Below are positions 2,659 through 37,781 of a stretch of DNA of 64,000 nt, piece by piece (the first letter of the stretch is position 1; each line of letters begins with the position of its first letter). Below the pieces are notes generated by a model that saw only the letters and a program-made list of their open reading frames with translations, did no database searches and was not told the DNA's origin. The stretch is from Candidatus Nomurabacteria bacterium (lineage in GTDB: Bacteria; Patescibacteriota; Minisyncoccia; Phycocordibacterales; UBA9973): the NCBI GenBank assembly GCA_029288725.1, contig JARIGS010000010.1, positions 23,947 through 87,946 on the forward strand, written 5' to 3'. Both the position numbers and the translations under genes were made by a program.

Positions 2659-3360
2659 ATGATGATTGAGATAAGCAACAGGGTTTTTAAGACCAAAAAG
2701 AGTGCTGAGGAGTTTATTCAAGACATACTCTATAAATATCCCTTAAATCAAAGTTTGACCGGAGAGGATCTAGTTTTTGTATGTGGTATGCTTGAGCTTC
2801 ATCCTGATAAGGACGTGAAAATAGGGGTCGGGGTCAGCTCAATTATTATTGAGTCTGATACTGAATTCAATAAGACAAGACACTTTTCTGTAGTCAGAAC
2901 CGACGGTTCAATCGTCGATTTTAGTTTTAAGAAATGCTTGTCGCCAAACTTGAATGAGCCGATAAAATTGTTTCGCTCATGTGCTAGACGTGCCATTGCA
3001 AACCAGTGCTTGTCTTTCAGAGATGAATTCTTTCATAAAGAGCAGAACCTAGATACAAAAGTTCCATGTGCGATCACAGGGGTTTTGATTGATAAAAATA
3101 ATTGTCATGTTGATCACATCCACCCCGAAACATTCGATAAGATCATATTAGATTTTATTGCTGCAAATAATATTAATGTTTCCGAGATTAAATTCATCGA
3201 AGCTCAAAATGGCATAGGTAGAGTATTTGCAGATGATACTTTAAAGGATAGTTTTTCTAAATATCACAAAAGTGTTGCTAAACTACAGGTCGTATCGCCT
3301 GTGGCTAATTTAAAGCAGAAAAAAAGTAAAAACGTAGCATACAAAAACAGCTCAAAATGA
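2659..3360 (+). CDS. HNH-like nuclease-motif protein (paralog 1), unknown N-terminal domain; stand-alone copy of the RT-coupled protein at 14900..15568
   Basis: 233 aa; CAITGVLIDKNNCHVDHIHPETFDKI matches HNH core HxDHIxP. ~70% identical to 14900..15568. Own promoter TTGATT-16-TATATT (~2624-2651); terminator hairpin at the 3' end. Confidence 0.6.
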   Translation: MMIEISNRVFKTKKSAEEFIQDILYKYPLNQSLTGEDLVFVCGMLELHPDKDVKIGVGVSSIIIESDTEFNKTRHFSVVRTDGSIVDFSFKKCLSPNLNEPIKLFRSCARRAIANQCLSFRDEFFHKEQNLDTKVPCAITGVLIDKNNCHVDHIHPETFDKIILDFIAANNINVSEIKFIEAQNGIGRVFADDTLKDSFSKYHKSVAKLQVVSPVANLKQKKSKNVAYKNSSK

Positions 3361-3369
3361 GCTGTTTTT
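3342..3369 (+). terminator. Rho-independent terminator (ACAGCTC-AAAAT-GAGCTGT + T5) overlapping the stop of 2659..3360
   Basis: Perfect 7-bp stem, 5-nt loop, T-run 3365-3369. Confidence 0.7.
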
Positions 3370-3400
3370 GTATGCTACTCGTGCTAGCACGAGACGGTGA
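3369..3400. repeat. 32-nt direct repeat copy A (TGTATGCTACTCGTGCTAGCACGAGACGGTGA). Candidate att/boundary repeat containing the 16-nt perfect palindrome CTCGTGCTAGCACGAG.
   Basis: 30/32 identical to 16515..16546. It is followed by a decayed copy of the tRNA-Glu 3' half (GAGATAGAACC vs GGGAATCGAACC). Confidence 0.6.
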
Positions 3401-3496
3401 GCCTTCTCGAGATAGAACCTTTCGGTTCATTGCCCCATAAGCTCCGTTTTTAATACTTTGATAAAAAATACCGACCCTTCTCGTGCGTAGCAAAAT

Positions 3497-3534
3497 AGTG
3501 ACAAAAGTGACACAGGGTCGAGTATAAAGTGACA
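3497..3534. promoter_or_regulatory. Three direct repeats of (A)AAGTGACA at 3497, 3506 and 3528; possible arm-type or regulator binding sites near the island end
   Basis: atAGTGACAaaAGTGACAca...aaAGTGACAgt read directly. Confidence 0.25.
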
Positions 3535-3724
3535 GTCGTGTGTCCTTATTTCATAAGAGAGTGAGACATCCTGAGACAGGGAAAAACATTTTTCAATTCA
3601 TGAAGAACTTGATCCTATTCTTGAACTTATAGCTAATGAGCAGCGAAAAATTGAAGGGATGCGGGAGTAAACTTGAAAAAATTTCACACAAACCGACCTA
3701 TACGATAGGCGGTTTTTTTGATAT

Positions 3725-3758
3725 AAAAAAGCCTAAACAGTTTTACTGTTTAGGCCTT
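3725..3758 (-). terminator. Terminator for the minus operon 4035..5657 / 3777..4019 (AGCCTAAACAGT/ACTGTTTAGGC stem flanked by A/T runs)
   Basis: 11-bp perfect stem, T-run on minus strand. Confidence 0.65.
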
Positions 3759-3776
3759 GGATATTAGTTTAATGGC

Positions 3777-4019
3777 TCACCCGATCTTTTTCTTCATCGA
3801 ATGGCCGGTGTTTGTTGTAGCATTGTTTCCCGAAATTTGAGCGATTGTTATAGCGCTCCATTTATAAAACTCATCGAGCGAGCCGATAAGTTCAGGGTTT
3901 TGTTGCAACAATGCTGCAATGTTGTCTTCATGCTGGTCAGCATAGACTGCGATTTTTTGAGCTCCTTCAGAAAGTTTTTTGAATCCTTCCTCGTCAGCCC
4001 AGTTTCTGTCCTTTTTCAT
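3777..4019 (-). CDS. hypothetical 80-aa protein, co-oriented 15 nt downstream of the transglutaminase-like gene
   Basis: ORF with terminator just downstream; no recognisable motif. Confidence 0.4.
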   Translation of the reverse strand: MKKDRNWADEEGFKKLSEGAQKIAVYADQHEDNIAALLQQNPELIGSLDEFYKWSAITIAQISGNNATTNTGHSMKKKIG

Positions 4020-4034
4020 AACGTTTGAATTTGT

Positions 4035-5657
4035 TTAAAGAAATCTTTTGGAAAGCCTGTGTTTGGATGGGAGCTTGCGGATTGCTTCCGCAGCCGCCTG
4101 TGCAAGCTCTGGATCATCTTTTTCTGGAACCATAGCGTTGTGAAGCGTGGTTTGACAGAAACAATAATCCAAAATGAAAGAGCTGCTACCTGCAACACGG
4201 TGATCTATTGCTAAAGAATTTAAAGCAGCTATTGCGACATGGTGATAGTTATCCGCTCCAAAGTGAGCCTCTGAGTGAGTGATGATGCCGGTATCGTTCC
4301 AGTGGTCATTGATAGTATCTAACGCTAGACAATGATAGTACGTGTACAGGCAGTCTTTCTTCTTTTGCAGAAAATGCTCAGGGTCATTCAAAACATCATT
4401 CAGCAAGCTATTGCTCGGCCCAAGTAACATGTCGGATGCGGTGTTGATCTTAAAAATTTTATCAATACCTGAAGGAAACTTCTCGCCTGATCCTTCTTCA
4501 AAAAGAAGATCAAACTCACCGCTATCTACAAAGGCTTCAACGATCTTTACCAGGTCTGTAATTGGCTGTAAAAGAACTTCCATCTTTTTAGAGCGAACCA
4601 TATAACCATTAAATATATCAGTAATATGCTGAACGCCCTGCTCAAGCTGCAATGGGGCACTCCCTATCACGCTCAACCCTGGCAACACATCTCTGTATTT
4701 GGAAATTTTTCGAACAATTTCCTCCATATCCCATTCTTGCGAAAGGATACCCCAGTTGAGTGAATTGGAATCAATAATTACCCATCTTCCGTCCCTCACC
4801 TGTATGACAGGGCAAACGTGAAATGAGTGCATCATATCATCCAGATCTCCAATCCTTATTCCTGCTTCAAGGCTATCCATAAACTCTGGATCAGGAAATG
4901 TGATGGAGCGTGCTTCAATGTCTTTTTTAATTTCAGAAGCTTTCTTTTGCCTGAGATCATCCAAAACATCCCGAGCAGTTTTGTTAGGAAGCATGACTAC
5001 CGTTTTAGCTCCTACCATCTCTGCAAATGCCAGTATCATTTGTGTTTTGCCCTGACAGTTTGCACGGTTGTCACTTTTGTTCCATTTCCCATACCCTAGG
5101 GGAAAAACGCTATCGAAGCCGTATCGGCTATTTCTTATTTCGATCTTACGTCTAAATTCAGCAAAAAGCTCTTTAGACGATATGGTCGTTTTTTCGCGTT
5201 GATCCTCGGTATGGAACAGATAGTACAGTTTTTTCGTAAGCTCAACCTGTTCGTCGGCGGTTGCAGATTTCCATTCTTTGGCAATCTGTTTTGCCTCGTC
5301 TGGCAAATTTTTCTTTGCAGCAGTAACGAGAGCCTTTCCTAACCCTCCGATCATTGCCCTCATCTCAATCCCATGACCATATTTAGAATGGGTATTAGAA
5401 GATTCAATAAGTGCCTGTTTTTCAGGATAAGAGTTTAGCAGCACACCAGATACTAAGTGCCCGGCTCGCAGCATTTTACCTTCATCGGTATGCTCAGGGT
5501 ATTTCTCAAAAAGCAGTTTCTGGTTTTTGAGCAAAGAAGTGTAGATTTTTGACCTCTTGAATGAGGTAAGATTTACTCCACACCCTTGTGTGAGCGCAAA
5601 ATCAAATAGTTCTTTAATATTCATGTTAATGTGCTTTTGGTTAAAATTTTTACTCAT
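4035..5657 (-). CDS. 540-aa protein with transglutaminase-like (papain-fold) Cys-His-Asp core
   Basis: NCQGKTQMILAFAEM (Cys) ... MMHSFHVCPVIQVRDGRWVIIDSNS (H..W..D pattern), with C-H-D spacing typical of transglutaminase-like cysteine peptidases. Confidence 0.45.
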   Translation of the reverse strand: MSKNFNQKHINMNIKELFDFALTQGCGVNLTSFKRSKIYTSLLKNQKLLFEKYPEHTDEGKMLRAGHLVSGVLLNSYPEKQALIESSNTHSKYGHGIEMRAMIGGLGKALVTAAKKNLPDEAKQIAKEWKSATADEQVELTKKLYYLFHTEDQREKTTISSKELFAEFRRKIEIRNSRYGFDSVFPLGYGKWNKSDNRANCQGKTQMILAFAEMVGAKTVVMLPNKTARDVLDDLRQKKASEIKKDIEARSITFPDPEFMDSLEAGIRIGDLDDMMHSFHVCPVIQVRDGRWVIIDSNSLNWGILSQEWDMEEIVRKISKYRDVLPGLSVIGSAPLQLEQGVQHITDIFNGYMVRSKKMEVLLQPITDLVKIVEAFVDSGEFDLLFEEGSGEKFPSGIDKIFKINTASDMLLGPSNSLLNDVLNDPEHFLQKKKDCLYTYYHCLALDTINDHWNDTGIITHSEAHFGADNYHHVAIAALNSLAIDHRVAGSSSFILDYCFCQTTLHNAMVPEKDDPELAQAAAEAIRKLPSKHRLSKRFL

Positions 5658-5873
5658 ATTACAATTAATATTTGACTATGTCAATATCATTATACAAAGC
5701 AACCAAAGGGTATTTACATTAACGCGGCTACAAAAAAAATGGCACCGCTCGGGATGAGGGTGCCATTTTACTTTTAGTTAATTTCGCCAGTTCACGACTA
5801 GCCTGGAACTTTTTTATTGACACATTGCTTATTAATGATATGGTATTTACATCGTTCATTTAAACAACCCAAT

Positions 5874-6326
5874 ATGAAAAAGCACTTACTGTTCGCCCTT
5901 ATTACCGCTTTCGTTATCACTGCCGTATACAGCATTGTTACCCATGGCTTCATGGTCAGTCACCACATGCTGGTACGACCCACTGATCCCGATTACAAGA
6001 AAGCGGAATGGTCCATGCTGATCCTCGTATTCGCATCGGCACCATTCGTCATGGTCATGGACTTCCTGACCTTGGTAGAAGTTACCAGAGGAAGTACGGA
6101 AAAATGGATATTGAATAAATACCATTATGATGTTACCAACCCGCTCAAGATGAGATTCATGCTTTTCTTGGCACGGTATCAATTTTTCCTGTACCTGATC
6201 ATGATCATACCACTACTGTACACGCTGATCAGCGGCTTCTGCAGCTTCCTAAGCTTTCTGGCATTCATCTTTGAACGGCCGATCGACTGGATTCGCTGGC
6301 AATGTTTCTGCATTAGCCTCTGGTAA
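5874..6326 (+). CDS. hypothetical multi-pass membrane protein
   Basis: MKKHLLFALITAFVITAV...; hydrophobic segments; terminator at 6349-6372. Confidence 0.45.
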   Translation: MKKHLLFALITAFVITAVYSIVTHGFMVSHHMLVRPTDPDYKKAEWSMLILVFASAPFVMVMDFLTLVEVTRGSTEKWILNKYHYDVTNPLKMRFMLFLARYQFFLYLIMIIPLLYTLISGFCSFLSFLAFIFERPIDWIRWQCFCISLW

Positions 6327-6404
6327 ATTGGCCACACACATTTTTACAAATCGCTCCTCGGAGCGGTTTTTTCATTTTACCATTGATCTTGCTATGATTA
6401 TGGA

Positions 6405-6764
6405 ATGGAAAAACTCTACATCACTCGAATCACTCTGCACGTAAAGGGCTTTCGACCTACGACGACGTTTTCAAAGGTCAAAGAAAAGGGCATTTTATAC
6501 AGCGCGCTTTCTTCAGATTCGTTCAATAAGCCGATCACTGGCAATGACAATATCAGAAACTTGCGCATCGACTTGCCGGAAGATCTCATGGAGAAGGTGC
6601 GAGCAGGGACACTCGAAATAATGATCCCGAAGGAAGGCCTTCAGATCTATGCAGGCAGAGACACGATTGAAAAGGCTCAGCATGAAATGGACAAGGAGCG
6701 CAATATGTTGATTCACAAGAGCCGCGGCAAAACTTGGCGCGCCGATGATAAAGGTGTAAAATAG
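6405..6764 (+). CDS. hypothetical protein
   Basis: ORF only; no motif. Confidence 0.3.
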   Translation: MEKLYITRITLHVKGFRPTTTFSKVKEKGILYSALSSDSFNKPITGNDNIRNLRIDLPEDLMEKVRAGTLEIMIPKEGLQIYAGRDTIEKAQHEMDKERNMLIHKSRGKTWRADDKGVK

Positions 6765-6915
6765 AACCACAACCGAATATTACAGGTGTTGCCCCGCACG
6801 ATAGTGCCATGCTCGCTTCGTAGAGAAAGCCCAGAAAATTAGGAATAGTTTTTTGAGTCTTCATCGCGAAGCGAGCTTTCTTGTTCTAATTACAAAAATT
6901 AAACAAGCAACTATC

Positions 6916-8193
6916 ATGAACAACATCATATGGCATACGGAAGTACGCCAAGTATCTAGTCTCCACTCATGGAGTGAAAACCCCCGCAAGCTCTCAAAAA
7001 GTGCGTTTGCAAAGTTAGTCGGGCGCATTCAGGAGCGCGGATTTCATTCAGTACTAGTGATTGATACCGATGACACCATCCTCTCTGGCAATCAGCGAAA
7101 GACCGCATTGGAGCATCTTAAGATTGAAGAAGTCACTGTATTGATACCAAACCGAAAGCTCTCAGAGGAAGAGCGGAAGAAGATCGCCCTTGAAAGCAAT
7201 CTTAACGATGGGGAATGGAATTACGAGATGCTCAAGTCCTTCGATATCGATCTTGTTACCGACATCGGCTTCGACATGTCCGAGCTTTCAAAGTTTTGGG
7301 ACAAGGATCTAGAAGTAACAGAAGAAGAATTCGACGAGGAAAAGGAAATTAAGAAGATAAAAGTTCCCGTAACTGAGTTCGGAGATCTCATTATCATGGG
7401 CGGTCATAAGCTGCTCTGCGGAGACTCGACTGATCCAGAAGCGGTAAAGAAACTGTTCGGAAACGACAAGGCGGCGGTCATCTACAGTGATGCAATTTTT
7501 AACATTGGCTTGAGCTATGACGGCGGCGTGGGCAACAAATCTAGTTACGGCGGTACGGTTGACGACAACAAGTCAGCTGAGGAATATAAAGAATTTATCA
7601 AGAAAACGATTGTGAATGCACTGTCTGTCTCAAAGGATGATGTTCACTGCTTCCAATGGTGCGATGAGGCCTGGATCTGGGTTTTTCAAACCATATACAA
7701 CGAGCTCGGTATCAAGAACCGACGAGTGAATGTATGGTTGAAGAACAACGCATCGCCCGTGGCCCAAGTGGCATTTAACAAGGCACTTGAATTCTGCGTC
7801 TATGGCACGAAGGGATCTCCATTTCTGTCTCCATTATACACCAATCTTAACGAGATCATGAATCCAGAACTCGGAACAGGAAACGATCTCTATGAGCAAG
7901 TGACAAATGTCTGGGCGCACAAGCGTCTGCCAAGCAATCAGCTCGAACATCCAACGAGCAAGCCGCCAGAACTTCACAAGAAGGCACTGCTCCGCTGTTC
8001 AAAGCCAGGAGACATCATCTTCGACTCCTTCTCGGGATCGGCGAGTACAATGATCTGCGCAGAACAGTTGAAACGAAAAGTATATTCCTTGGATATAGAA
8101 GGCGTCTTCTGTGACTTGGCCATTCGCCGTTACGAAAAGTTCACAGGAAAGAAAGCAGAAATAATCAAACACTTCTATGAAAAAGAATACTAA
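6916..8193 (+). CDS. ParB-like N-terminal nuclease domain fused to a beta-class DNA (N6-adenine/N4-cytosine) methyltransferase
   Basis: VLVIDTDDTILSGNQRKTALEHL (ParB box). HPTSKPPELHKKAL (motif IV) then IIFDSFSGSASTMI (motif I FxGxG). ATG at 6916; the ORF track starts earlier at a TTG. Confidence 0.75.
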   Translation: MNNIIWHTEVRQVSSLHSWSENPRKLSKSAFAKLVGRIQERGFHSVLVIDTDDTILSGNQRKTALEHLKIEEVTVLIPNRKLSEEERKKIALESNLNDGEWNYEMLKSFDIDLVTDIGFDMSELSKFWDKDLEVTEEEFDEEKEIKKIKVPVTEFGDLIIMGGHKLLCGDSTDPEAVKKLFGNDKAAVIYSDAIFNIGLSYDGGVGNKSSYGGTVDDNKSAEEYKEFIKKTIVNALSVSKDDVHCFQWCDEAWIWVFQTIYNELGIKNRRVNVWLKNNASPVAQVAFNKALEFCVYGTKGSPFLSPLYTNLNEIMNPELGTGNDLYEQVTNVWAHKRLPSNQLEHPTSKPPELHKKALLRCSKPGDIIFDSFSGSASTMICAEQLKRKVYSLDIEGVFCDLAIRRYEKFTGKKAEIIKHFYEKEY

Positions 8194-8593
8194 GAAGAAC
8201 GAGTTCATTGATCAGCTCCGCAAGATTCCCATTGTCTTGGTCGCCTGCGAAAAGACATCGATTGCTCGCAACACGGTATACCGTTGGCGCAAGGAGGATG
8301 AATCGTTCGCAACGGCTATGGATGACGCGTTGCTCGAAGGCGAAGCACTGATCAATGACATGAGCGAGAGTCAACTGCTTACCATGATCAAGGAAAAAAA
8401 CTGGTCGGCGATCAGCTTCTGGCTTCGTCATCGCAATCCGAAGTTCAGAGACAAGGTTGAGATAACTCATTCCACGAAGGATAAGGAGCTTACCAACGAA
8501 CAAAAGGCATTGATTGAAAAAGCGCTACAACTCACTACCTTCTCGCAAGACAAGGCACTTGAAATATTATCAGGCACTACAAATGAAAAATAA
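8177..8593 (+). CDS. putative phage terminase small subunit (HTH)
   Basis: SIARNTVYRWRKEDESFATAMDDAL HTH typical of TerS N-termini; overlaps the MTase gene end and the TerL gene start. Confidence 0.5.
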   Translation: MKKNTKKNEFIDQLRKIPIVLVACEKTSIARNTVYRWRKEDESFATAMDDALLEGEALINDMSESQLLTMIKEKNWSAISFWLRHRNPKFRDKVEITHSTKDKELTNEQKALIEKALQLTTFSQDKALEILSGTTNEK

Positions 8594-10109
8594 ATATATG
8601 AATATATTAAATAACAAGGAGCTGATCGAAACTATTATCAAGGATCGTGAGGTGCGCCGCGCACTGACCAAGGAGAGCCATGAGTATTTCTTCCCCGTAT
8701 ATTTTGGGGAGTATATAAAATATCCCAGTGCGCCCCTTCATACGGAAATGATCAAGATCACGGAAAACACTGACGAGCAGTTGTCGGTGGTGGTGGCATT
8801 TCGTGGTTCTGCAAAATCCACAATCTTCTCTTTGTCATATCCCATCTGGGCGATATTGGGAAAGCAACAAAAGAAGTTCGTGCTCATAGTGTCCCAGACA
8901 CAGGTGCAGGCTCGGCAACTCCTCACCAACATCAAAGAAGAGTTGACGAACAATCACCTGCTGAAGAGCGACCTCGGACCATTTGAAGAGCCAGACGACG
9001 AATGGCGTGCGGCTTCCATTGTGCTTCCGCAGTACGGTGCCCGTATCATGGTCGCATCAAGCGAGCAAAGCATTCGTGGCATACGCCATAAAAGCTATCG
9101 TCCAGATCTCATCATTCTCGACGACATCGAGGACATTGCCTCCTCCAAGACAAAAGAGGGTCGCGACAAGACGTTTCGATGGCTTGCAAGCGAGGTGCTT
9201 CCTGCGGGAGATGTCACAACGAAAGTCATTCTTATTGGAAACCTTGTTCATGAGGATTCAGTCATCATGCGTCTTCGGCAAAAGATTAAGCTTAAGGAAA
9301 TCAAAGGAAGCTTCTCTATGTATCCGATCATGGATGAGCAGGGAGTGAGCTTGTGGCCCGGGAAATTCCCGACACCAGAATCGTTGAAAAACGAGGAGAC
9401 GAAAGTGCTCAATCCGCAGGCATGGTTTCGCGAGTATCTGCTTAAAATCATTCCCGAGGAAGGACAGGTAGTCTTTCCAGAATGGTTTCAATATTACGAC
9501 ACCTTGCCAACCAAACATCAGCGCGCCTACCGTTGCACGTATTCGGCGGTTGACTTGGCAATATCTCAGAAAGACAGTGCTGACTATACGACTGTTGTCA
9601 CGGCATATGTCTATGGGCGTGCGGACAAGATTCGCATATACATTCTGCCAAACCCAATCAACAAAAAGCTGTCATTTCCTGCACAAGTGGAAATGCTGAA
9701 AGGTCATGCAGCGATTGCTTTGCCGAATTCTTCCGACAAGCTTTTTGTTGAAAGCGTCGCATACCAAGACGCACTGCCGCAAATGCTCAAAACCCAAGGG
9801 GTGCATGCGATTGGCGTAAAGCCGCAAAATGACAAGCGCACACGCCTTGCACTGACGACTTCCTATATTCAATCGGGACGAGTGAAATTCCCCCAGAAAG
9901 GGTGCGAAGATCTCATTCAGCAACTGGTCGGTTTCGGTATTGAAAACCACGATGACCTTGCTGATGCATTTTCGTTGCTCATTCTGCAGATTGCGGAGCG
10001 ACATCTTAATGAGTCGACATGGATGATATGCTTCCTTGGTGGGTCAAGCTACGATAAGAACGGGACTATTTATTATGATGACTATATTGACGTGGAAACA
10101 GGAAAATAA
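8583..10109 (+). CDS. phage terminase large subunit (ATPase + RNaseH-like nuclease)
   Basis: Walker A AFRGSAKST, Walker B LIILDDIEDI, nuclease region SAVDLAISQKDSADYTTVV. ATG 8583 chosen (overlaps the TerS stop by 11 nt); alternative upstream start 8514. Confidence 0.8.
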   Translation: MKNKYMNILNNKELIETIIKDREVRRALTKESHEYFFPVYFGEYIKYPSAPLHTEMIKITENTDEQLSVVVAFRGSAKSTIFSLSYPIWAILGKQQKKFVLIVSQTQVQARQLLTNIKEELTNNHLLKSDLGPFEEPDDEWRAASIVLPQYGARIMVASSEQSIRGIRHKSYRPDLIILDDIEDIASSKTKEGRDKTFRWLASEVLPAGDVTTKVILIGNLVHEDSVIMRLRQKIKLKEIKGSFSMYPIMDEQGVSLWPGKFPTPESLKNEETKVLNPQAWFREYLLKIIPEEGQVVFPEWFQYYDTLPTKHQRAYRCTYSAVDLAISQKDSADYTTVVTAYVYGRADKIRIYILPNPINKKLSFPAQVEMLKGHAAIALPNSSDKLFVESVAYQDALPQMLKTQGVHAIGVKPQNDKRTRLALTTSYIQSGRVKFPQKGCEDLIQQLVGFGIENHDDLADAFSLLILQIAERHLNESTWMICFLGGSSYDKNGTIYYDDYIDVETGK

Positions 10110-10129
10110 TTCCGTTAATAATTGGCAAA

Positions 10130-10966
10130 TTAGTTATAGCTCGTAATGATTCCGCTACTGTCATAATAAACACAGCTTTCACTATAGTCAGACCCTGTCC
10201 AACAGGCCTGATACTGATTGCCAGTTCCATAGTTTGAGGTATGTACTGAGCTTGGGCTGCCCCATGCGGCGCGAACCATGTCTATGTCCATGCCGACTGT
10301 AATTTTATGGCTTGCAATGGTTGCACAGACATCCTTGCTCCAGTCAGGGTGCTTTTTGCACACCTTTCCCGCAGGACTGTTATCGTAGGCTGCTTGTACG
10401 GCCTTGTCTTCGGCTGTTTTGATAGCTTCTGCCTGGGCTTGCTGCAGGTCTTCGGTTGCCATTTGAGCTTTCTCCTGATCGGTATAGAGGCGAGTGATCG
10501 TAATAGTCTTCGTGTCAGTTTTGTCATTGTTCGTTGCGGCCACCATCACGGTATTCGTTTCCTTTGTCAGGCCAACTGATGAAGAAAACTTTCCATGCGA
10601 GACAACGGTGACATTTCCGTTGACGGTCACTGTTGCGGTGTACGGCTCGACCGATCCTTCAATGGTGGCGGAAGCCGACTGTATTGAGGCGTTGTCTGCG
10701 GGGCTGGTTATGACAATCGTTGGCGCTCGTTTGGCATACAAGTTAAGACCGGTGAGCATGATGCAAAGTGCCACGAGAGCCGCAGTCCATTGGACTTTTC
10801 CTTTTTGATGCATCGTGACGCTCTTCCAAACATATATTATCGCTATGAGTGGAAATGAGACGTACCAGTATATGAATGCGATCGGTACTACGACCACAAG
10901 TATGAGCAGGATGCTTATTATCTTGTGCTTGTGATAAAAGTCTTTCAGTTCTTCGTTAATGGTCAT
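10130..10966 (-). CDS. hypothetical membrane-anchored/exported protein (N-terminal TM, Cys-rich C-terminus)
   Basis: ILLILVVVVPIAFIYWYVSFPLIAIIYVW TM segments; long structured leader upstream. Confidence 0.5.
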   Translation of the reverse strand: MTINEELKDFYHKHKIISILLILVVVVPIAFIYWYVSFPLIAIIYVWKSVTMHQKGKVQWTAALVALCIMLTGLNLYAKRAPTIVITSPADNASIQSASATIEGSVEPYTATVTVNGNVTVVSHGKFSSSVGLTKETNTVMVAATNNDKTDTKTITITRLYTDQEKAQMATEDLQQAQAEAIKTAEDKAVQAAYDNSPAGKVCKKHPDWSKDVCATIASHKITVGMDIDMVRAAWGSPSSVHTSNYGTGNQYQACWTGSDYSESCVYYDSSGIITSYN

Positions 10967-10968
10967 AT

Positions 10969-11115
10969 TTTCTCTAGCGGGATTTAAATATGAGAGAAGC
11001 CCAGATATAACAAAAGGCTCCTCGCCATTGCGATGACCTTTCGGCCACCCATACCCGTTTCCAGATACGACCCGCTAGAGTGACTCTGACGAGGAGTCCT
11101 TTGTTCTCTAGCGGG
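10969..11115 (-). promoter_or_regulatory. Structured 5' leader of 10130..10966 with three copies of a 10-mer (CTCTAGCGGG 10972-10981, its reverse complement 11071-11080, CTCTAGCGGG 11106-11115)
   Basis: Read directly. The proximal copy sits 5 nt from the start codon, and the middle copy can pair with either outer copy. Confidence 0.35.
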
Positions 11116-11231
11116 AGTTTCGACCATATCCTTTGTTTCCAAGGGGGTTAGGCCTCTATTAAATTGTTACCTGACTATAATACAGTAAATACTGCATTAC
11201 TTCCACACCTTATCGCAGTTCAGTTGATTTG

Positions 11232-12254
11232 TTAAGGCTGGTTACCAACAGTCATCTGATTGAGGTATTTCCTCAAATCTTCTATCGTCTCAATCTGTTT
11301 TGTCTTATGCATGTAAGGCAGCTTTACCCATATGTTGATCGTGATGAATGCTCTCAGGAGAACTTGGTCATATTCTTCACCATCAAAGTATCCCTCGACA
11401 AGTTGCTTGGTTACTTCGTCCAATCCAACCTTTGAAGCAAGGATAATGCTTCTGGCTATGTCCATATATGGATGATGGAAACAAGCCCATGGGTCAAAGA
11501 CCGTAAGAGGCTCCGTAGCGAACACGTTACCAGTATGAAAGTCGTTGTGACAATACACTGTTTCTTTATTATTACCAATACGAGAAATGATCAATCTGCA
11601 TACTTCCTCTATTGATCCATGATCTCTATCATTTAAGAGCTGGTTCTCCTTCACATATGCAAACTGCTCCTTTGTGCGAGTGTCGCTCTCAAGCCACTCC
11701 GCAACCGTCTGGTACCCTGGCCCCTTCTTGTCATTCACTATATTGCTGCAGCCCTCCGTCTTGGTGGCGTGCATTTTTCTTAGCATCTTGCCCAAATCGT
11801 AATAGGCTCTCTTTTCCAAGAGTTCCTCGTTGCTGTATTTCTGAATCAAGGTCTGCGCTTCGATATATTCCATGAGTACATAGAAGTGGTCTCCTAACGT
11901 GCCCTCTTCAAAGACATGAGGTACTCTTACTCCACTGTCTTCCCATACCTTAAGGAACGACCCTTCTAGTCCCGAAGTGAGCAAGCTCAATGGCACCTTA
12001 AGAATATATTTTTGCTCCATTGTATCGAGAATGCAGACCAGTGATGAAACCCCTGCATGGAGAAAGGTAATGTCAACTTTCTTACTCAAAAACAAGAAAT
12101 GGTTACTTATAAAATCCTTAAGCACTGGAAGGAGTGCTGTTCGGCGTTCGTTGAAATTGGTGTCCGCTTCGTGCTCGGACAGCTTTGGCTCATTGAGGAA
12201 AGTGATCCTATTGGGATCTTGAAGATTGTCGTTCATCCACCAATTATACTCCAA
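11232..12254 (-). CDS. phosphotransferase enzyme family protein (APH/choline-kinase-like fold)
   Basis: CHNDFHTGNVF (catalytic HxDxxxxN) and FDPWAC (metal-binding D). Confidence 0.65.
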   Translation of the reverse strand: MEYNWWMNDNLQDPNRITFLNEPKLSEHEADTNFNERRTALLPVLKDFISNHFLFLSKKVDITFLHAGVSSLVCILDTMEQKYILKVPLSLLTSGLEGSFLKVWEDSGVRVPHVFEEGTLGDHFYVLMEYIEAQTLIQKYSNEELLEKRAYYDLGKMLRKMHATKTEGCSNIVNDKKGPGYQTVAEWLESDTRTKEQFAYVKENQLLNDRDHGSIEEVCRLIISRIGNNKETVYCHNDFHTGNVFATEPLTVFDPWACFHHPYMDIARSIILASKVGLDEVTKQLVEGYFDGEEYDQVLLRAFITINIWVKLPYMHKTKQIETIEDLRKYLNQMTVGNQP

Positions 12255-12351
12255 GTTCTATTTTGAGAGTATTGATACGATTGCGAGTATGCTATGAAAT
12301 ACTTATCCTGCATAGCTATGCATCACCAACCAGTCTGTCATTAATATAGGT

Positions 12352-13671
12352 ATGGAAACGACAGCTATCGGCAAGATTCCGAGCAACATATCCATTTCGG
12401 AGACGAGGGTCAGATACTGCCTGTATGCCCGAAAATCGACCGAGTCGGACGAGCAGCAGGCACTGTCCATAGACTCGCAGATCAAGGAGATGACGGATAT
12501 TGCGGAGCGACTAAAACTCAACGTGGTCATGGTGAAGCGAGAGTCACATTCCGCAAAGGAGTCTGGACAGCGACCAGTGTTCAAGGAATTGCTGGAAGAA
12601 ATCAGAGACGGAAAATGCGACGGTATTCTCACATGGGCACCAGACCGACTGAGCAGAAATGCTGGCGATCTTGGAACCGTTGTCGATCTCATGGATCAAA
12701 AGAGGCTGATTCACATTCAGACGTACGGACAGACATTTTCCAATTCACCAAATGAGAAATTTCTGCTGATGATATTATGTTCACAAGCGAAGCTTGAGAA
12801 TGACAATAAAAGCATCAACGTGAAGCGTGGGCTTCGGGCAAGAGTCGAGATGGGACTCTGGCCGTGCAGACCGCCGACTGGATATACAAAATACAAGCGT
12901 ATTGATCAGAAGTGCGAGTCAGTGATTGATCCAGTGCGAGCGCCAGTTATCAAGCAGATGTTTGAGAAAATTGCATATGACGGCTGGAGCGGAAGAAAGC
13001 TGTACCATTGGCTGAAGGACGACATCAAGTTCAGGACGGAAAACAACATGCCATTGAGTCTCGGCAATCTCTACAAGATTCTGGAGAACCATTTCTATTA
13101 CGGACGATTCGAGTTCCCGAAGCAGTCTGGCAACTGGTACAACGGCGCGCATGAGCCGATCATTACGAAAGACCTGTTTGACCTTGTTCAGGAAAGGATA
13201 AAGAGTCAGATACTTCAGCCACGGTCAGAGCAAAAGGAGTTTGCCTTCACCAAGATCATGACCTGCGGACTGTGCGGCTCTGGCATCACTGCAGACGAGA
13301 AGTTCAAGAAGCAGAAGAACGGCAACGTCCACCGCTATGTCTATTACAAGTGCACCCGTGTCAAGGATTCGCAGTGTCCCAGCGGATACATCAACGAAGA
13401 AGAACTCGTTACCCAGTTGCAGGATCTGATGGACGACGTTGAGATACAGACGGTGCCAATGCGGGAGAAGATAACGGCGGAGGTACACCGCTTCAAGAAG
13501 TTTGAGCAAATGCTACTGGGAACAAAGACGACAGTGTCGGTGAAGGATATCGATATCCGCAACTATGCCAAGTTCATTCTGCTTGAGGGAACAATGGACG
13601 AGAAGCGAGAGTTTCTAAGGTGTTTGAAGAGCGAGATCGTGTTGAATAACAAAAGGGTTTCATTAAAATAA
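12352..13671 (+). CDS. large serine recombinase (resolvase/invertase catalytic domain + recombinase domain + zinc ribbon)
   Basis: YARKSTESDEQQALSIDSQ (catalytic Ser), DRLSRN, GLWPCRPPTGYT, CGLCG...YYKC. Confidence 0.85.
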   Translation: METTAIGKIPSNISISETRVRYCLYARKSTESDEQQALSIDSQIKEMTDIAERLKLNVVMVKRESHSAKESGQRPVFKELLEEIRDGKCDGILTWAPDRLSRNAGDLGTVVDLMDQKRLIHIQTYGQTFSNSPNEKFLLMILCSQAKLENDNKSINVKRGLRARVEMGLWPCRPPTGYTKYKRIDQKCESVIDPVRAPVIKQMFEKIAYDGWSGRKLYHWLKDDIKFRTENNMPLSLGNLYKILENHFYYGRFEFPKQSGNWYNGAHEPIITKDLFDLVQERIKSQILQPRSEQKEFAFTKIMTCGLCGSGITADEKFKKQKNGNVHRYVYYKCTRVKDSQCPSGYINEEELVTQLQDLMDDVEIQTVPMREKITAEVHRFKKFEQMLLGTKTTVSVKDIDIRNYAKFILLEGTMDEKREFLRCLKSEIVLNNKRVSLK

Positions 13672-13688
13672 TGTGGTATAATAGAAGC

Positions 13689-13895
13689 CACTTGTAAATT
13701 GAAAAGCCACCCATTTTTTTATCTTTTTATAAAAAAGATTTCAAAGATAAAATGTCCCGATCATGACGGCACTGAGCTGGCTACCGCCTTAACAGTACAG
13801 TCGGAATCGTATCATTGATTTCTTTGTCCTTTGAGAGATTAGTCCTTAGAGAGGTAGGTAGTCCGCTATCAACAATGACAGTTTTACAAGTAGTT
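13689..13895 (+). ncRNA. candidate retron non-coding RNA (msr-msd) upstream of the RT
   Basis: Extended -10 TGgTATAAT at 13674-13682 predicts a TSS near 13689. Inverted repeat ACTTGTAAA (13690-13698) / TTTACAAGT (13883-13891) resembles a1/a2. Internal hairpins ATCTTTTT-ATA-AAAAAGAT (13721-13739) and GGGGTGG-N12-CCACCCC (13897-13922). Boundaries are approximate. Confidence 0.35.
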
Positions 13896-14010
13896 CGGGG
13901 TGGTTTTGTTATTGTCCACCCCACAGTTAGTGTATGGAATTATTCGTAATTGCATTACTGCTTATTTTCCTCACAATTCGTGAGTCGAATAAGTAAGGGC
14001 TAAGACCTCA

Positions 14011-14907
14011 GTGGATAATGAAAAATTATATTCCTCAAAGAAATACCTCCTAACGCTCCTTGGAATAAAGGAAAACTTTCTGTACCCCAATTTCTCACAA
14101 AAATACAAAGAAAAGAATATCCCCAAAAAGAATGGCGGCATTCGAAAAATTAAACCACCGCAATTTAACCTCAAGAAACTCCAAAAGGTTGTCCTTGAAA
14201 AAATACTCCGTATACATCCTCAGTTGCCATGCGTGTACGGTTTATCAAAGGATAGGAACATCACCAGTAATGCAAAACTTCACCGGAAAAATTTTGATAA
14301 CCAGTTAGTCGTTTTGGACATTGAAAACTTTTTTCCAAGCATAACAAAAAAGCAAATAGTTCAAGTATTTAAGAAAATCGGTTTCAATAAAGAAAATTCT
14401 TTGATACTTGCGAAAATTTGCACCGTTGATGATTGCTTACCCCAAGGCGCACCAACCAGTCCGTACCTCGCTTCTCTCGTTTGCATTAAACTGGATAAAG
14501 AAATATACCAATACTGTAAAAAACATAATTTTGAATACACAAGATATTTTGATGACATTAGTGTCTCAGGGAAAAACATACTGCCCAAACATATTAAAGA
14601 TATAGAAAACGCTATCCGTAAACACGGTTTTACCTGTAACGCAGAGAAGAAGAATTTTTATGACACAGGTAAGGATAAGATTATAAATGGTGTACTAATT
14701 ACTGAAAATGGGCTATCAGTAACAAGTTCTTACAAAAAGGAAATTGAAGATATTTATAATGCATTAATCAATAGTCGGACTATTGAAAACAAAAGGTCAT
14801 TTTCGGGCAAGTTTGGATTTTATTTACACATAAACAGGAAAGAAGCCGTTGCTTTTTTAGAAGGAATGAAAAAAGGAATAACCTCGCTAGCGTATAACCA
14901 TGATTGA
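14011..14907 (+). CDS. retron-type reverse transcriptase
   Basis: VLDIENFFPSITKKQIVQVF, LPQGAPTSPYLASLVCIKLD and YTRYFDDISVS align closely with Ec86 RT blocks NIDLEDFFPSL / LPQGAPSSPKLANLIC / YTRYADDLTLS. ~298 aa; no maturase or X domain. Confidence 0.85.
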   Translation: MDNEKLYSSKKYLLTLLGIKENFLYPNFSQKYKEKNIPKKNGGIRKIKPPQFNLKKLQKVVLEKILRIHPQLPCVYGLSKDRNITSNAKLHRKNFDNQLVVLDIENFFPSITKKQIVQVFKKIGFNKENSLILAKICTVDDCLPQGAPTSPYLASLVCIKLDKEIYQYCKKHNFEYTRYFDDISVSGKNILPKHIKDIENAIRKHGFTCNAEKKNFYDTGKDKIINGVLITENGLSVTSSYKKEIEDIYNALINSRTIENKRSFSGKFGFYLHINRKEAVAFLEGMKKGITSLAYNHD

Positions 14908-15568
14908 AATAGATAGCAAGATTTTCAAAACCAAAAAGGATACCGAGGATTTTATTCGTACGATACTTTACAAGTACCCCCTAAATGAGCCACTGATCGG
15001 AGAAGACTTGGCTTTTGTCTCTAGCCTGCTTGAACTTCACCCCGACAAGGACACGAAAATAGGAGCTGGAGTCAGCTCAATCATCACTGAAGCCGACAGC
15101 GAGTTCAATAAAACCAGACATTTTTCTATTGTTAGAGTGGACGGTACGATCGTCGATTTTAGTTTTAAAAAATGTTTGTCACCAGTACCGAATGAACCTA
15201 TCAAATTGTTCCGATCTTGTGCAAGGCGTGCAGTTGCAGATCAAGCTCTGTCTTTCAGGGACAAGTTTTTTCTTGAGAATCAGAATTCCGATGGAAATGT
15301 CGCATGTGCGCTTACTGGTGTTTTGATTAATAAAAATAATTCACACATTGATCATATCGCCCCAGCTACGTTCGACAAGATTGTTTTGGATTTTATTGCT
15401 ATAAACAACATTGATGTAAGTAAGGTCAAATTTATTGAATCGCTAAACGGGATAGGTAGAGTATTTGCTGATAACAATTTAAAAGATACCTTTTCTACAT
15501 ATCACAAAAATGTTGCCATGCTACAGGTCGTATCGCCTGTGGCCAATTTAAAGCAGAAAAAGAAGTAA
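14900..15568 (+). CDS. HNH-like nuclease-motif protein (paralog 2), translationally coupled to the RT (ATGATTGA overlap)
   Basis: CALTGVLINKNNSHIDHIAPATFDKIV (HxDHIxP). 8-nt overlap with the RT stop. ~70% identical to 2659..3360. Confidence 0.6.
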   Translation: MIEIDSKIFKTKKDTEDFIRTILYKYPLNEPLIGEDLAFVSSLLELHPDKDTKIGAGVSSIITEADSEFNKTRHFSIVRVDGTIVDFSFKKCLSPVPNEPIKLFRSCARRAVADQALSFRDKFFLENQNSDGNVACALTGVLINKNNSHIDHIAPATFDKIVLDFIAINNIDVSKVKFIESLNGIGRVFADNNLKDTFSTYHKNVAMLQVVSPVANLKQKKK

Positions 15569-15589
15569 AAAAATCTTCTCTTTTGCAAT

Positions 15590-16105
15590 TTATAATTTTC
15601 CCATTCTCTTCAAAACTTTTTCTGTAAGATCGTCTATATTTTCCTGATTACTAATATCAGGAGATAGTTTTTTTAAAATCACATCTAATTCCATGTATGA
15701 TTTTTGGTCACCAATTTTTGCATAAAAGTGCTTTAGTCCAATAATGATTGATTCTGTCAACATTTTGACATAAGGTAAGGAGCTAACTGCGGTATAGTGA
15801 TAACCTGCAATTCGTTCAAAATCAAAATCGTCATTAAAAACATCAAATGAATCAAGAAGGGCTCCATAAGAAACATGGGTATAGCTAGAGAGCATTCCGT
15901 AAATACCCGCCTTCACCTCATCAAACGGTATTTTTTCATTAGGCTTTTCTTGATTATCAGAATACTTTTGATATTGTTTTCTTGCTACTTCATTCCCAAC
16001 AATTTTACCCTCGAACCATTTGATTAAATCAGGATTTGTATCGTCACTGTCTAGGAAGTAAAATGCCAAGTCTAAAGCTTCTTGTGACGATCGAACAATT
16101 TCCAT
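15590..16105 (-). CDS. hypothetical protein
   Basis: 171-aa ORF; may be the distal part of a gene disrupted together with 16260..16487. Confidence 0.4.
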   Translation of the reverse strand: MEIVRSSQEALDLAFYFLDSDDTNPDLIKWFEGKIVGNEVARKQYQKYSDNQEKPNEKIPFDEVKAGIYGMLSSYTHVSYGALLDSFDVFNDDFDFERIAGYHYTAVSSLPYVKMLTESIIIGLKHFYAKIGDQKSYMELDVILKKLSPDISNQENIDDLTEKVLKRMGKL

Positions 16106-16259
16106 TACCTCATAATGAAATCCATCGGCTGCTAAATGGAAAATTGCCGATAGTCCTTGAGAAGCTTTGCCAAATAATATATAGGCGGCAGTAATTTTAT
16201 TTTGATCAATGGCATCCTTAATGTGAAGTCGGACCTGTCGAATGTATGGAAAAAACTCA

Positions 16260-16487
16260 TTAAAACATTTTTTTTAAAACTTCCACCTTTTTAAGAATAA
16301 AAACCTTGTCTGCCTCCATCTGCTCATATGGAAAATTAGGATTTTGATTCAAAAAATCCTTAACTTTCTCTTGCTGATCCTTGTACTTCTTGATACGTTC
16401 TGCTATTGAAAGTTGCGCTTCTTTTTTAAGGGGGTTAATGTTATCCATTGTTTTTAAACCACGAGTTCGATTCTCAAAAGGGTGCAA
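16260..16487 (-). CDS. hypothetical small protein (possible fragment)
   Basis: 75-aa ORF ending at a T8 homopolymer; a 150-nt gap before the next same-strand ORF. Confidence 0.3.
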   Translation of the reverse strand: MHPFENRTRGLKTMDNINPLKKEAQLSIAERIKKYKDQQEKVKDFLNQNPNFPYEQMEADKVFILKKVEVLKKMF

Positions 16488-16514
16488 AATCCTGATTTTG
16501 AAAATACCCTTAAA

Positions 16515-16546
16515 ATGTATGCTTCTCGTGCTAGCACGAGATGGTG
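16515..16546. repeat. 32-nt direct repeat copy B (TGTATGCTTCTCGTGCTAGCACGAGATGGTGA), overlapping the last 6 nt of tRNA-Glu
   Basis: 30/32 identity to 3369..3400. Confidence 0.6.
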
Positions 16547-16615
16547 ACCCTACGGGGAATCGAACCCCGATTTAAGCCTTGAGAAGGCTCCGTCCTAACC
16601 GTTAGACGATAGGGC
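16541..16615 (-). tRNA. tRNA-Glu (anticodon CUC), CCA encoded
   Basis: Reverse complement GGCCCTATCGTCTAACGGTTAGGACGGAGCCTTCTCAAGGCTTAAATCGGGGTTCGATTCCCCGTAGGGTCACCA. 7-bp acceptor stem with one G-U, T-loop GGTTCGATTCC, anticodon loop TTCTCAA. Confidence 0.85.
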
Positions 16616-16659
16616 CAAGTGCTGCATAACTATAATGAACGATGGTGTATAATGCAAGC

Positions 16660-17157
16660 ATGAAAAAAAGATATTTTTTGCTTATCTTTGTGGTGCTGTT
16701 TGCGGCATCGATGTATGGATTGGTGGCGACGGTGGAGAATAGTACACCGACGGTTAATACTCCTGCTGCAGGATTGTCGTCTGAGCAAGTGCCGCCAGTG
16801 CAGAAGGATGATCTGATCATGGTGACTGCGCCGCTGACCGGGCAGACCGTGACCTCGCCGTTGATGATCAGTGGCAAGGCAAGAGGGAATTGGTATTCCG
16901 AAGGCGTCTTTCCGGTCGAGCTGACGACTGATGACGGTTCGATCATTGCATCGGGTGAAGCTCATGCCGAAGGCGAATGGACGACGACCGACTACGTGCC
17001 ATTTACTGCTACGCTGACATTTCCGACCAGCAATCCTTCGCTTCGCTCAGGAGCTACGGCAGAAACATCCACTATGGGATACGTCGTATTGAAAAAGGAC
17101 AACCCTTCCGGTGATCCGCAGTTTGACAACTCCGTATCAATCCAAGTACAGTGGTAG
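16660..17157 (+). CDS. secreted Gmad2-like immunoglobulin-fold protein
   Basis: Signal/TM MKKRYFLLIFVVLFAASMYG; -10 TATAAT at 16648 with a short leader. Confidence 0.45.
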   Translation: MKKRYFLLIFVVLFAASMYGLVATVENSTPTVNTPAAGLSSEQVPPVQKDDLIMVTAPLTGQTVTSPLMISGKARGNWYSEGVFPVELTTDDGSIIASGEAHAEGEWTTTDYVPFTATLTFPTSNPSLRSGATAETSTMGYVVLKKDNPSGDPQFDNSVSIQVQW

Positions 17158-20203: not shown

Positions 20204-20223
20204 GGAATTCACCGCCCCATCTC

Positions 20224-20317
20224 ACAAAACCACCCCCTCCACGGTACGCATAATTTTCTGCTGAAAATTTGCTCGGTCTCGGGCCAACCCTGCGAAGCCT
20301 GCTCCGGGAGTGTTTTG
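20224..20317. repeat. 94-nt intergenic repeat, copy 1 (core ACGCATAATTTTCTGCTGAAAATTTGCTCGGTCTCGGGCCA...)
   Basis: ~85% identical to 36726..36819. Contains hairpin AATTTTC-TGCTG-GAAAATT. Followed by promoter TTGCTC-17-TATAAT (20315-20343). Confidence 0.6.
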
Positions 20318-20349
20318 CTCGGTGGCGTTGCGAATGCTATAATTTTTGC

Positions 20350-20682
20350 ATGATATTACTTCGCTGGTTTATTACGACGCTTGCAATCTTTGCATTGCCA
20401 TTTTTTGTTGCCGGTATCGGTGTGAATAGTATTCTTACTGCCGTGATTGTGGCAGCCTGCCTGGTCTTCCTGAACATGGTGGTCAAGCCGATCATTACCT
20501 TGCTGACATTGCCGTTGAACATCATTACCCTGGGATTGTTTTCAATCATTATCAATGGCGCATTCTTCTGGTTCGTTGCCCAGATCATCACGGGCTTCAC
20601 TGTTGCCTCATTTGTCGCTGCCATCATCGGTGCCTTTGTGATCTCGATTATCAACTGGATTATCAATCATTTCATCGACTAA
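20350..20682 (+). CDS. 4-TM membrane protein, YvlD/phage-holin-4-like
   Basis: MILLRWFITTLAIFALPFF...; the ORF-track N-terminal extension comes from a TTG inside the repeat. Confidence 0.6.
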   Translation: MILLRWFITTLAIFALPFFVAGIGVNSILTAVIVAACLVFLNMVVKPIITLLTLPLNIITLGLFSIIINGAFFWFVAQIITGFTVASFVAAIIGAFVISIINWIINHFID

Positions 20683-36708: not shown

Positions 36709-36725
36709 AGTACATACGAAGCTCA

Positions 36726-36819
36726 ACAAAACATCCCCTCTCGCAAGACGCATAATTTTCTGCTGAAAATTTGCTCGGTCTCGGGCCAGCCCTGCGAGGC
36801 ATGCTCGAGAGGTGTTTTG
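36726..36819. repeat. 94-nt intergenic repeat, copy 2
   Basis: see 20224..20317. Confidence 0.6.
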
Positions 36820-36839
36820 TATCGCTTCGAAAGCGCTCC

Positions 36840-37781
36840 ATGATCAATATTGATGAGTTAAAAAAGAATCATAAGACCCAATACCTCGCTGAACAGTACG
36901 AGCGTCTTTTGCGTCAGGAGGAGGAGACACAGGCACTGATCGCAACTGACCCTTCTATGAAAGACATGGCTGATGATGAATTAGCGGCTATTGCCATTCA
37001 GAAGACTGCAATTGAGGAACAGCTTGCCGCTATCGAAGCATCTGAAAAGGAAGAGGAGGAATTTCCTAATGAAATCATTTTGGAAGCCCGTGCCGGTGCT
37101 GGTGGGGACGAGGCATTTCTCTTTGCCCAGCAATTGCTCGATATGTACTGTCGTTTTGCAGAATCCCGTGGCTGGCAGTGGAAGCCCATCGATGACCTGA
37201 CCGTTGAAATAAAGGGGAAGGACGTATATCGTTTGTTACGTTTTGAAACAGGGGTGCATCGCGTGCAGCGTGTGCCGGTAACGGAAAAGAATGGCCGCAT
37301 TCATACTTCAACAGCATCGATTGCTATCCTGCCTATTAAGAAAAAGGTGACATTTGTCATCAATCCTGCAGATTTGGATATGGAATATTCCCGTTCCGGT
37401 GGGGCAGGGGGGCAGAACGTCAACAAGGTGGAAACCGCCGTACGCTTGATCCACAAGCCAACGGGTATCGATGTCCGCTCTACTAGCGAACGTAGTCAGT
37501 TAGCCAACCGTGAAAAGGCCTTGACCATTCTGACGGCGAAGCTCCAGCAGATGAAGGAAGAGGAGGAAGCGGCAAAGTATGCCGGTGATCGTAAAAATCA
37601 GATCGGTACCGCTGATCGCAGTGAGAAGATCCGCACCTATAACTTCCCCCAGGACCGCGTGACCGATCACCGTATCCGTCAGAACTTCTCAAACCTGGAA
37701 GGCATTATGGCCGGCAAAATCGATAAGATTATCGATGCACTGCAGGCAGGGGAAATGGGAGAGGCGAGTGACGACGAATAG
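36840..37781 (+). CDS. prfA: peptide chain release factor 1
   Basis: [18 protein letters not shown] (GGQ), PxT-type N-terminal region. Start at MINIDELKK; the ORF-track extension is a TTG inside the repeat. Confidence 0.95.

Follow-up and report, generated by a model that had tools for sequence, protein, structure and literature searches.

Rickettsia palindromic elements (RPEs) are palindromic repeats of ~100-150 nt which are found between genes as well as in frame within unrelated housekeeping proteins (PMC10969869), and MITEs are defined as elements of less than 500 bp without coding capacity which have TIRs of ~4-30 bp conserved within the family, flanking direct repeats in young copies and a related autonomous IS or transposase acting in trans (PMC10969869). 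As judged from sequence comparisons, two repeats found in a stretch of 64,000 nucleotides, the whole of which is referred to as the window in the following, are probably members of a non-coding hairpin repeat family in the Patescibacteria (CPR) which acts as a non-autonomous mobile element of the RPE type. This phylum-wide family is apparently undescribed, and a literature search for the sequence or for an RPE- or MITE-like element in CPR found no description of it in the papers covered. To our knowledge, no transposase is known for RPEs, and the mobility mechanism of Rickettsia-style palindromic insertion has never been solved. Patescibacteria genomes are tiny and streamlined, and they nonetheless carry tens of copies of the element described here.

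The first-pass annotation had described a 94-nt repeat occurring twice in the window, and a repeat search of the 64 kb returned the same two intervals (20224-20317 and 36726-36819) as a 2-copy family of 94 nt with 83% identity; a covariance model run with filters off also found two copies only within the window. The identical core ACGCATAATTTTCTGCTGAAAATTTGCTCGGTCTCGGGCCA that had been noticed is real (20246-20286 and 36748-36788; chance expectation 0 matches), its measured length being 41 nt and not 42 nt, and the same holds for the hairpin AATTTTC/GAAAATT, the loop of which is, however, TGCT instead of TGCTG, and which is extended by GCA/TGC with a bulged T. The parts of the two copies, all on the forward strand, are the following:

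20224 to 20317, forward: copy A (arms and core), covariance-model match 20234-20310, 59.0 bits, E 6e-14
20210 to 20214, forward: outer pairing CACCG at the copy A locus, with CGGTG at 20320-20324 (sequence, fold)
20224 to 20240, forward: 5' arm of copy A, ACAAAACCACCCCCTCC, pairing with 20305-20317 (GGGAGTGTTTTG) (sequence, folds)
20248 to 20272, forward: P3 hairpin of copy A, GCA-T-AATTTTC[TGCT]GAAAATT-TGC, the family signature (folds, covariation)
20269 to 20271, forward: TTG in P3 of copy A, in frame with the downstream gene, spurious ORF 20269-20682
20281 to 20290, forward: P4 apical hairpin of copy A, GGG-CCAA-CCC
36726 to 36819, forward: copy B (arms and core), covariance-model match 36736-36812, 60.1 bits, E 3e-14
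36717 to 36722, forward: outer pairing CGAAGC at the copy B locus, with GCTTCG at 36824-36829
36726 to 36743, forward: 5' arm of copy B, ACAAAACATCCCCTCTCG, pairing with 36805-36819 (CGAGAGGTGTTTTG) (sequence, folds)
36750 to 36774, forward: P3 hairpin of copy B (folds, covariation)
36771 to 36773, forward: TTG in P3 of copy B, in frame with prfA, spurious ORF 36771-37781
36783 to 36792, forward: P4 apical hairpin of copy B, GGG-CCAG-CCC

Both copies are intergenic and lie after a stop codon and ahead of the next gene, as had been stated. The 5' end of copy A is found 21 nt past the stop (20203) of a yqeY-like (GatB/YqeY-like) gene and its 3' end 32 nt short of the ATG (20350) of a PF04020 (YvlD-like) membrane-protein gene; copy B begins 17 nt past the stop (36708) of rpmE (L31) and ends 20 nt short of the prfA (RF1) ATG (36840). 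Exact-protein look-ups of the L31 and RF1 proteins of the window returned no record. The outer pairings at both loci are locus-specific and lengthen the hairpin past the ends of the repeat, and P4 of copy A is a shortened variant of the 4-bp stem and CGUC loop of the family. The observation that an in-frame TTG misleads ORF callers was also correct, the TTG codons at 20269 and 36771 giving spurious N-terminal extensions; the true start of the YvlD-like gene is ATG 20350 and that of prfA is ATG 36840, the RF1 homologs being 311-314 aa long. Just outside copy A, 7 nt ahead of the ATG of the YvlD-like gene, lies an extended -10-like sequence, TGCTATAAT (20335-20343), which is probably this gene's own promoter outside the repeat and which was left unflagged by the promoter scan because a -35 match is absent.

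The window also contains a low-GC integrated island (1-17000; GC 0.32-0.41 at its edges) that is bracketed by a direct repeat (D3) of the 3' end of a tRNA-Glu gene (3369-3419 and 16516-16566) and that looks like a defence or prophage-remnant island. Besides a gene for an APH-family kinase it comprises:

938 to 2554: OLD-family AAA/TOPRIM nuclease
2659 to 3360: paralog of the DUF3223 protein (300-nt repeat D1)
6853 to 8193: N6/N4 DNA methylase
8514 to 10109: terminase-like protein
11032 to 11154, minus strand: LOOT RNA (RF03000), full-length, 82.5 bits against a gathering score of 46.4
12352 to 13671: large serine recombinase
14011 to 14907: reverse transcriptase, followed by a DUF3223 protein
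16542 to 16616, minus strand: tRNA-Glu

The LOOT RNA sits between a membrane-protein ORF and the kinase gene; judged by this RNA and by the RF1 relatives, the window comes from a Patescibacterium of Paceibacterota type. The segment 3369-3419 (51 nt) repeats the terminator hairpin and the 3' half of tRNA-Glu at 82%; no tRNA was called in it by ARAGORN or Rfam, and it represents either the duplicate of the island's attachment site or a degenerate or intron-containing tRNA. The serine recombinase and the reverse transcriptase lie in an island which is separate from and unrelated to the repeats.

With respect to the distribution of the repeat, an exact scan with a core 25-mer gave 12 loci, five of them in a single MAG, from no fewer than 8 Patescibacteria MAGs that carry the labels Paceibacterota, Kaiserbacteria, Saccharibacteria and Minisyncoccia, and an exact scan with a core 21-mer gave at least 120 metagenome stretches. 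Several of the loci stem from CPR-rich groundwater of the Hainich wells. At least 132 distinct copies were left after removal of duplicates. Many more copies hence exist than the two in the window, and of the interpretations offered by the first-pass annotation it is the small dispersed repeat that is borne out, by more than 130 distinct copies in many Patescibacteria MAGs and metagenomes. Neither the exact 21-mer scan of viral contigs nor blastn against phage and plasmid records gave a match.

Since the variable arms misalign, an alignment of whole elements is unsuitable, and MAFFT and RNAalifold on the whole element were replaced by per-copy folding, alignment of arm against arm and a covariance model. 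By per-copy folding, all copies have a common fold, namely one long hairpin with a three-way junction at its tip. The outer stem (P1/P2) has a median of 28 bp and is almost wholly different in sequence between genomes but always paired; P3 is an A/U-rich hairpin, GCA-U-AAUUUUC[UGCU]GAAAAUU-UGC, and P4 is GC-rich, its apical stem of 4 bp being capped by a CGUC loop. The elements have a median length of 117 nt (range about 85-220 nt) and a GC content of about 0.4-0.6, and none contains an ORF with a start codon of its own.

Some copies deviate in their organisation. Large extra hairpins of up to about 60 extra nt are nested in P4 at L002 (7088-7240), L013/L037, L036, L052, L131 and L103, the P4 loop of the tip thus tolerating insertions. 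Pairs of copies, either inverted or tandem and often with one partner more decayed, are found at L087 (368-447 on the plus and 483-561 on the minus strand), L022 (4251-4330 and 4352-4428) and L040 (4432-4511 on the minus and 4546-4624 on the plus strand), which suggests insertion beside or into existing copies. A second conserved hairpin-like motif, TCCCAGACAGCACCGACCGAAGGGAGGGCGCGATCTGGGA, precedes the element by ~20 nt at L034 (1560-1615) and L128 (100-155); it is limited to these two loci and absent from the window and the other 134 loci.

The copies are spread among unrelated housekeeping genes at a density of roughly one per 30-50 kb (in the flanks about one additional copy for every 50 kb, and 2 in the 64-kb window), and near-identical copies can be found at different loci (e.g. 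L016, L020, L039, L084 and L094). Several copies reside less than 100 nt from contig ends, as expected of repeats that break assemblies. According to greedy ORF calls, 80 copies could be classified by the orientation of their neighbouring genes (36 ++, 16 --, 19 convergent (+-) and 9 divergent (-+)): in either orientation, the copy adjoins the 3' end of a gene in all but 9 of the 80, and co-orientation with the genes is biased (36 vs 16). In three different Paceibacterota (L006, L008 and L034) a copy directly follows lepA with different subfamily cores and arms, which reflects either a preferred site or an old insertion that has been inherited vertically.

The termini of the element are common to the members of one subfamily or one genome, but not beyond (e.g. 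TGAATTRCGAAAC...GTTTCGYAATTCA). Flanking direct repeats of at least 5 nt were found for 13.6% of the copies compared to 6.3% at random positions, with no consistent target-site duplication in a recently amplified subfamily and no conserved flanking target tetranucleotide across subfamilies. One subfamily has a hypervariable mid-stem between short flanks that are conserved (CTCCGCCCGAA / TTCGGGCTAYNTTYRGTG), and in the tgt copy the 3' flank codes for ALFG, a conserved motif in the host protein; such conserved short flanks hint at a target preference or at microhomology. That the 'GGAC' subfamily flanks are part of a host RNA gene was considered and rejected, as the host loci differ and there was no Rfam match.

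It is the pairing and not the sequence of the arms that is conserved. Over 3,504 aligned positions, 86% of the arm positions are Watson-Crick paired, yet the arms of the 117 copies that could be measured form 90 unrelated clusters, and a 100% identical 62-nt core can be found (e.g. in L034 and L047) together with unrelated, perfectly paired arms of 24-41 bp. The covariation analysis that the annotation had called for points in the same direction for the core. In an alignment of 80 sequences fitted to the model, 16 of the 18 core pairs show compensatory changes, 91.3% of the core cells are paired as compared to 40-50% with slid partners, and the covariation score is 0.297 against 0.089 for shuffled alignments (reached by 0 of 500 shuffles). 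P3 is 98% paired across 80 copies with compensatory changes in 8 of its 10 pairs, and the apical pairs of P4 show 4-5 pair types each in the core alignment. A covariance-model search of the flanks (715 kb to about 0.9 Mb) added ~14 copies that had not been selected by the exact 21-mer, and these carry compensated P3 variants (ATTTTTC/GAAAAAT, GGA/TCC, AGA/TCT, GGGG/CCCC and CCGATTTTC/GAAAATCGG). When window copy B is set against its ortholog in L136, each of the stems shows compensatory changes, the outer pairing among them (GAAGC/GCTTC in copy B, AAAGT/ACTTT in L136), and between the orthologous copies in L006 and L008 pairing is likewise kept through compensatory changes. This suggests selection on resident copies, which is not required of a purely selfish element.

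Of the non-Watson-Crick arm positions on the AATTTTCTGCTG strand, counted with one representative per arm cluster, 109 are A·C and 59 are G·T (p about 1e-4), so that it is the reverse strand that favours G·U wobble. Since the copies run preferentially in the same direction as genes on the forward strand, the wobble-favoured strand is opposite to the usual direction of transcription. Known mutational strand biases predict the reverse of this asymmetry.

Two further ideas on the origin and role of the arms were discarded. That they act as guides to other loci found no matches of this kind in about 1 Mb of collected sequence. That they are, as a general rule, derived from the host (as terminator stems or an inverted target duplication) is contradicted by intragenic copies, in which both arms are extra, and by the fact that copies of the same genome share arms across loci and that arms match only sibling copies. 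The L133 terminator resembles the arms in the window, which we note as a curiosity.

In addition to intergenic copies, at least six interrupt genuine conserved genes, to which they add about 33-45 aa in frame and without a stop codon, the only form in which copies within genes survive; the intragenic fraction is about 5%. The host proteins are DnaE (L011), RecG (L120), TsaD (L046), MiaA (L043), Tgt (L047) and a XerC/D-like protein of the Phage_integrase family (L015), and in each of the six a Pfam match spans the insert. Of the six frames in which the core can be read, five are open, translation being tolerated by the element, and in five of six cases the copy is antisense to its host gene, a bias that is predicted by the pattern of stop codons. 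For DnaE the fate of such an insertion can be followed: the distance between PPDxN and IRFGL is 22-25 aa at baseline but 38-77 aa in a clade of close homologs, where recognisable, decaying element-encoded peptides (e.g. ARTEQFSSKKIAYPEAG) occupy the same site, whereas sister DnaE sequences at similar identity have no element-derived peptide. A search of protein databases with the concatenated element-encoded peptides gave 2 matches that are too short for significance against 5.8 billion sequences.

Gain and loss are evident at orthologous sites. The gene order L25-SLT-L31-RF1 is kept in the relatives of the window, but the L31-RF1 spacer is occupied by the element in the window and in L136, where it measures 131 nt. 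In L133, L134 and L135 it is empty: it is 51-58 nt long, contains a classical terminator (A-tract/stem/T-tract) and gives no covariance-model match. As the empty L133 is the closest relative of the occupied L136 (RF1 88%, SLT 89%), gain or loss has taken place within a narrow clade, the presence of the element being patchy among relatives with 82-88% identical RF1. Likewise, two near-identical strains, represented by L017 and a second site in L048, agree almost entirely in their flanks and are told apart by a single clean indel of 99 nt. Missing from the shorter form are P2, the core and the 3' arm, whereas the outer 5' arm stays; AT microhomology is found at the bounds of the indel, and one of its ends lies exactly at the element terminus.

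Among the alternatives to a mobile element, a gene-specific cis-regulatory leader or riboswitch for the yvlD-like gene and prfA can be dealt with most briefly. It would agree with the distance of 20-32 nt that separates the two copies from the start codons behind them and with the stable fold of the copies, and a candidate cis-regulatory RNA had indeed been proposed for them. However, the statement that the genes downstream are unrelated, made for the two window copies, holds for the flanking genes across more than 130 copies, which lie in both orientations; many copies are convergent or without any downstream gene, some are intragenic, and close relatives express prfA from an element-free spacer. 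Neither did Rfam 15 yield a match to the repeat in the window at the gathering threshold, and at E<=10 three copies searched on both strands gave only far-sub-threshold noise of the miRNA-precursor type. This context survey effectively refutes the idea, to which we assign next to no probability, and the two window copies sit as passengers between yqeY and yvlD and between rpmE and prfA and do not regulate their neighbours. A terminator-promoter cassette, the other function that had been suggested, is not a trait of the family. An intrinsic (Rho-independent) terminator has a U-tract directly behind a GC-rich hairpin; terminator and promoter scans found none in either window copy, and T-tracts (at least 5 T in the 8 nt past the 3' arm) are barely enriched over controls (31% of the copies vs 21%), for which reason a terminator was rejected as a family trait. 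The suggestion retains some local merit for copy B, which lies at the position of the relatives' terminator: the arms of the window subfamily end in CAAAAC...GUUUUG, the UUUUG being part of the stem and the only T-run present, and by way of these ends copy B may at present serve as a 3'-end hairpin in the place of the relatives' rpmE terminator.

The main rival is a structured RNA with a function for the host, residing in 3'-UTRs or intergenic regions, bound by a conserved Patescibacteria protein or RNase and involved in termination, processing or stability, which happens to be multi-copy and for which the copies in coding sequences would be accidents. The covarying stems, a junction and loops that are nearly frozen across the phylum, the identical 62-nt core with wholly unrelated perfect arms and the maintenance of orthologous copies by compensatory changes all speak for such an RNA, as do the siting at gene 3' ends, the 36:16 co-orientation and the replacement of a terminator by copy B. 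On the other hand, one third of the copies in tandem context are antisense to their neighbours, as are five of six intragenic copies to their host genes; the excess of G-U wobble falls on the strand that usually is not mRNA, and the bare enrichment of T-tracts, the patchy presence at orthologous sites and the 99-nt indel between near-identical strains are not what such an RNA would lead one to expect. Hammerhead-like self-cleaving motifs (CUGANGA/GAAA) were not found by eye and have no Rfam support. On balance we regard this explanation as unlikely. The mobile and the host-functional readings are compatible, as a mobile element can be co-opted. A more specific mechanism within mobility is that the element is the folded ssDNA substrate of a HUH/Y1 transposase (REP/RAYT- or IS200/IS605-like) or of a tyrosine recombinase (attC-like). 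In favour of this scenario are the lack of family-wide terminal inverted repeats and of a clear TSD, the conservation of arm structure in place of sequence, an indel end exactly at the element terminus and the wobble-type strand asymmetry, which suggests that one strand is folded and selected irrespective of the direction of transcription. However, no Y1/HUH transposase or integron integrase was seen beside any copy (some of the window ORFs were scanned), the copies are dispersed among housekeeping genes and form no cassette arrays, and the conserved part is central and not at the ends where cleavage sites would lie, with no conserved flanking tetranucleotide across subfamilies; in this specific form we consider the proposal rather improbable.

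We therefore return to a non-autonomous mobile element of the RPE type. Against it stands that no transposase, parent IS or other trans-acting gene was seen next to any copy, and that a conserved centre with free termini is the reverse of a classical MITE. The conserved tip would be a module recognised by a trans-acting copying or insertion machinery common to the Patescibacteria, and the arms would need only to pair. Given that family-wide TIRs, a clear TSD and a nearby transposase are all lacking, classical DDE cut-and-paste is probably not the route, and a structure-dependent single-strand route (ssDNA/HUH-like or RNA-mediated) would be likelier. Going further, it is conceivable, and we propose it only tentatively, that the family constitutes a new structure-defined class of mobile elements which is ancient and specific to the Patescibacteria, with the three-way-junction tip as the handle for a single-strand machinery, with repeated donation of peptides to DnaE, RecG, TsaD, MiaA and Tgt, and with possible co-option as 3'-end hairpins that replace terminators. 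With its strong conservation, the tip gives a tangible starting point in the search for this machinery. In practical terms, gene calls with spurious N-terminal extensions find their explanation in the element, as do some of the lineage-specific insertions seen in CPR proteins. It may also be the cause of assembly breaks in CPR MAGs, several copies being found at contig ends; the covariance model can be used for masking and annotating these repeats.

When compared to known systems, the family has in common with REP/REPIN-RAYT systems and the ends of IS200/IS605 that it consists of extragenic hairpins at gene 3' ends without TIRs or TSD, that structure outweighs the sequence of the arms and that strand-specific folding is plausible. 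However, REPs are shorter and carry conserved sequence in their arms, and RAYT genes are flanked by their REPs, whereas in the family described here no flanked RAYT-type gene or conserved 5' tetranucleotide was seen and the arms vary across genomes. From integron attC sites, which are imperfectly palindromic, bear conserved R''/R' boxes terminally and form cassette arrays beside an intI gene, it differs in that its copies occur singly, scattered among housekeeping genes, and that conservation is central instead of terminal. Dispersed terminator-like small repeats resemble the window subfamily, whose ends are an A-tract and a T-tract and which stands in for the relatives' rpmE terminator, but terminator-likeness is not family-wide and the Patescibacteria element has a branched, conserved tip.

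Prokaryotic MITEs such as Correia, ERIC, QMITE and Chunjie are alike in being small, non-coding and dispersed with a preference for intergenic regions, and also in their predicted stable stem-loop transcripts, size variants and decayed copies (PMC10969869). The median of 117 nt and the lack of an own-start ORF agree with the MITE definition, and each copy has long inverted arms, although the termini are without family-wide conservation; in contrast to that definition, the lengths of flanking repeats are close to those of the random-position control. The Patescibacteria family further departs from MITEs by the inverted pattern of a conserved tip with free ends, by the absence of conserved TIRs, of a clear TSD and of an identified parent IS, and by not being AT-rich (GC about 0.4-0.6).

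The closest likeness in properties is to RPEs, from which the family is separated by its occurrence in a different phylum, so that the comparison is one of properties and not of sequence membership; none of the searches linked the family to RPEs. The intragenic fraction is reportedly nearly half in some RPE families as compared to about 5% here, and in the Patescibacteria family it is the centre with its three-way junction that is kept across the phylum, the arms differing from lineage to lineage. Common to both are a long hairpin, multiple copies, intergenic positions, hosts with reduced genomes and in-frame insertions that add peptides, which in the Patescibacteria affect six unrelated host proteins and would thus provide a second, independent and much broader case of Rickettsia-style in-frame palindromic insertion into essential genes.
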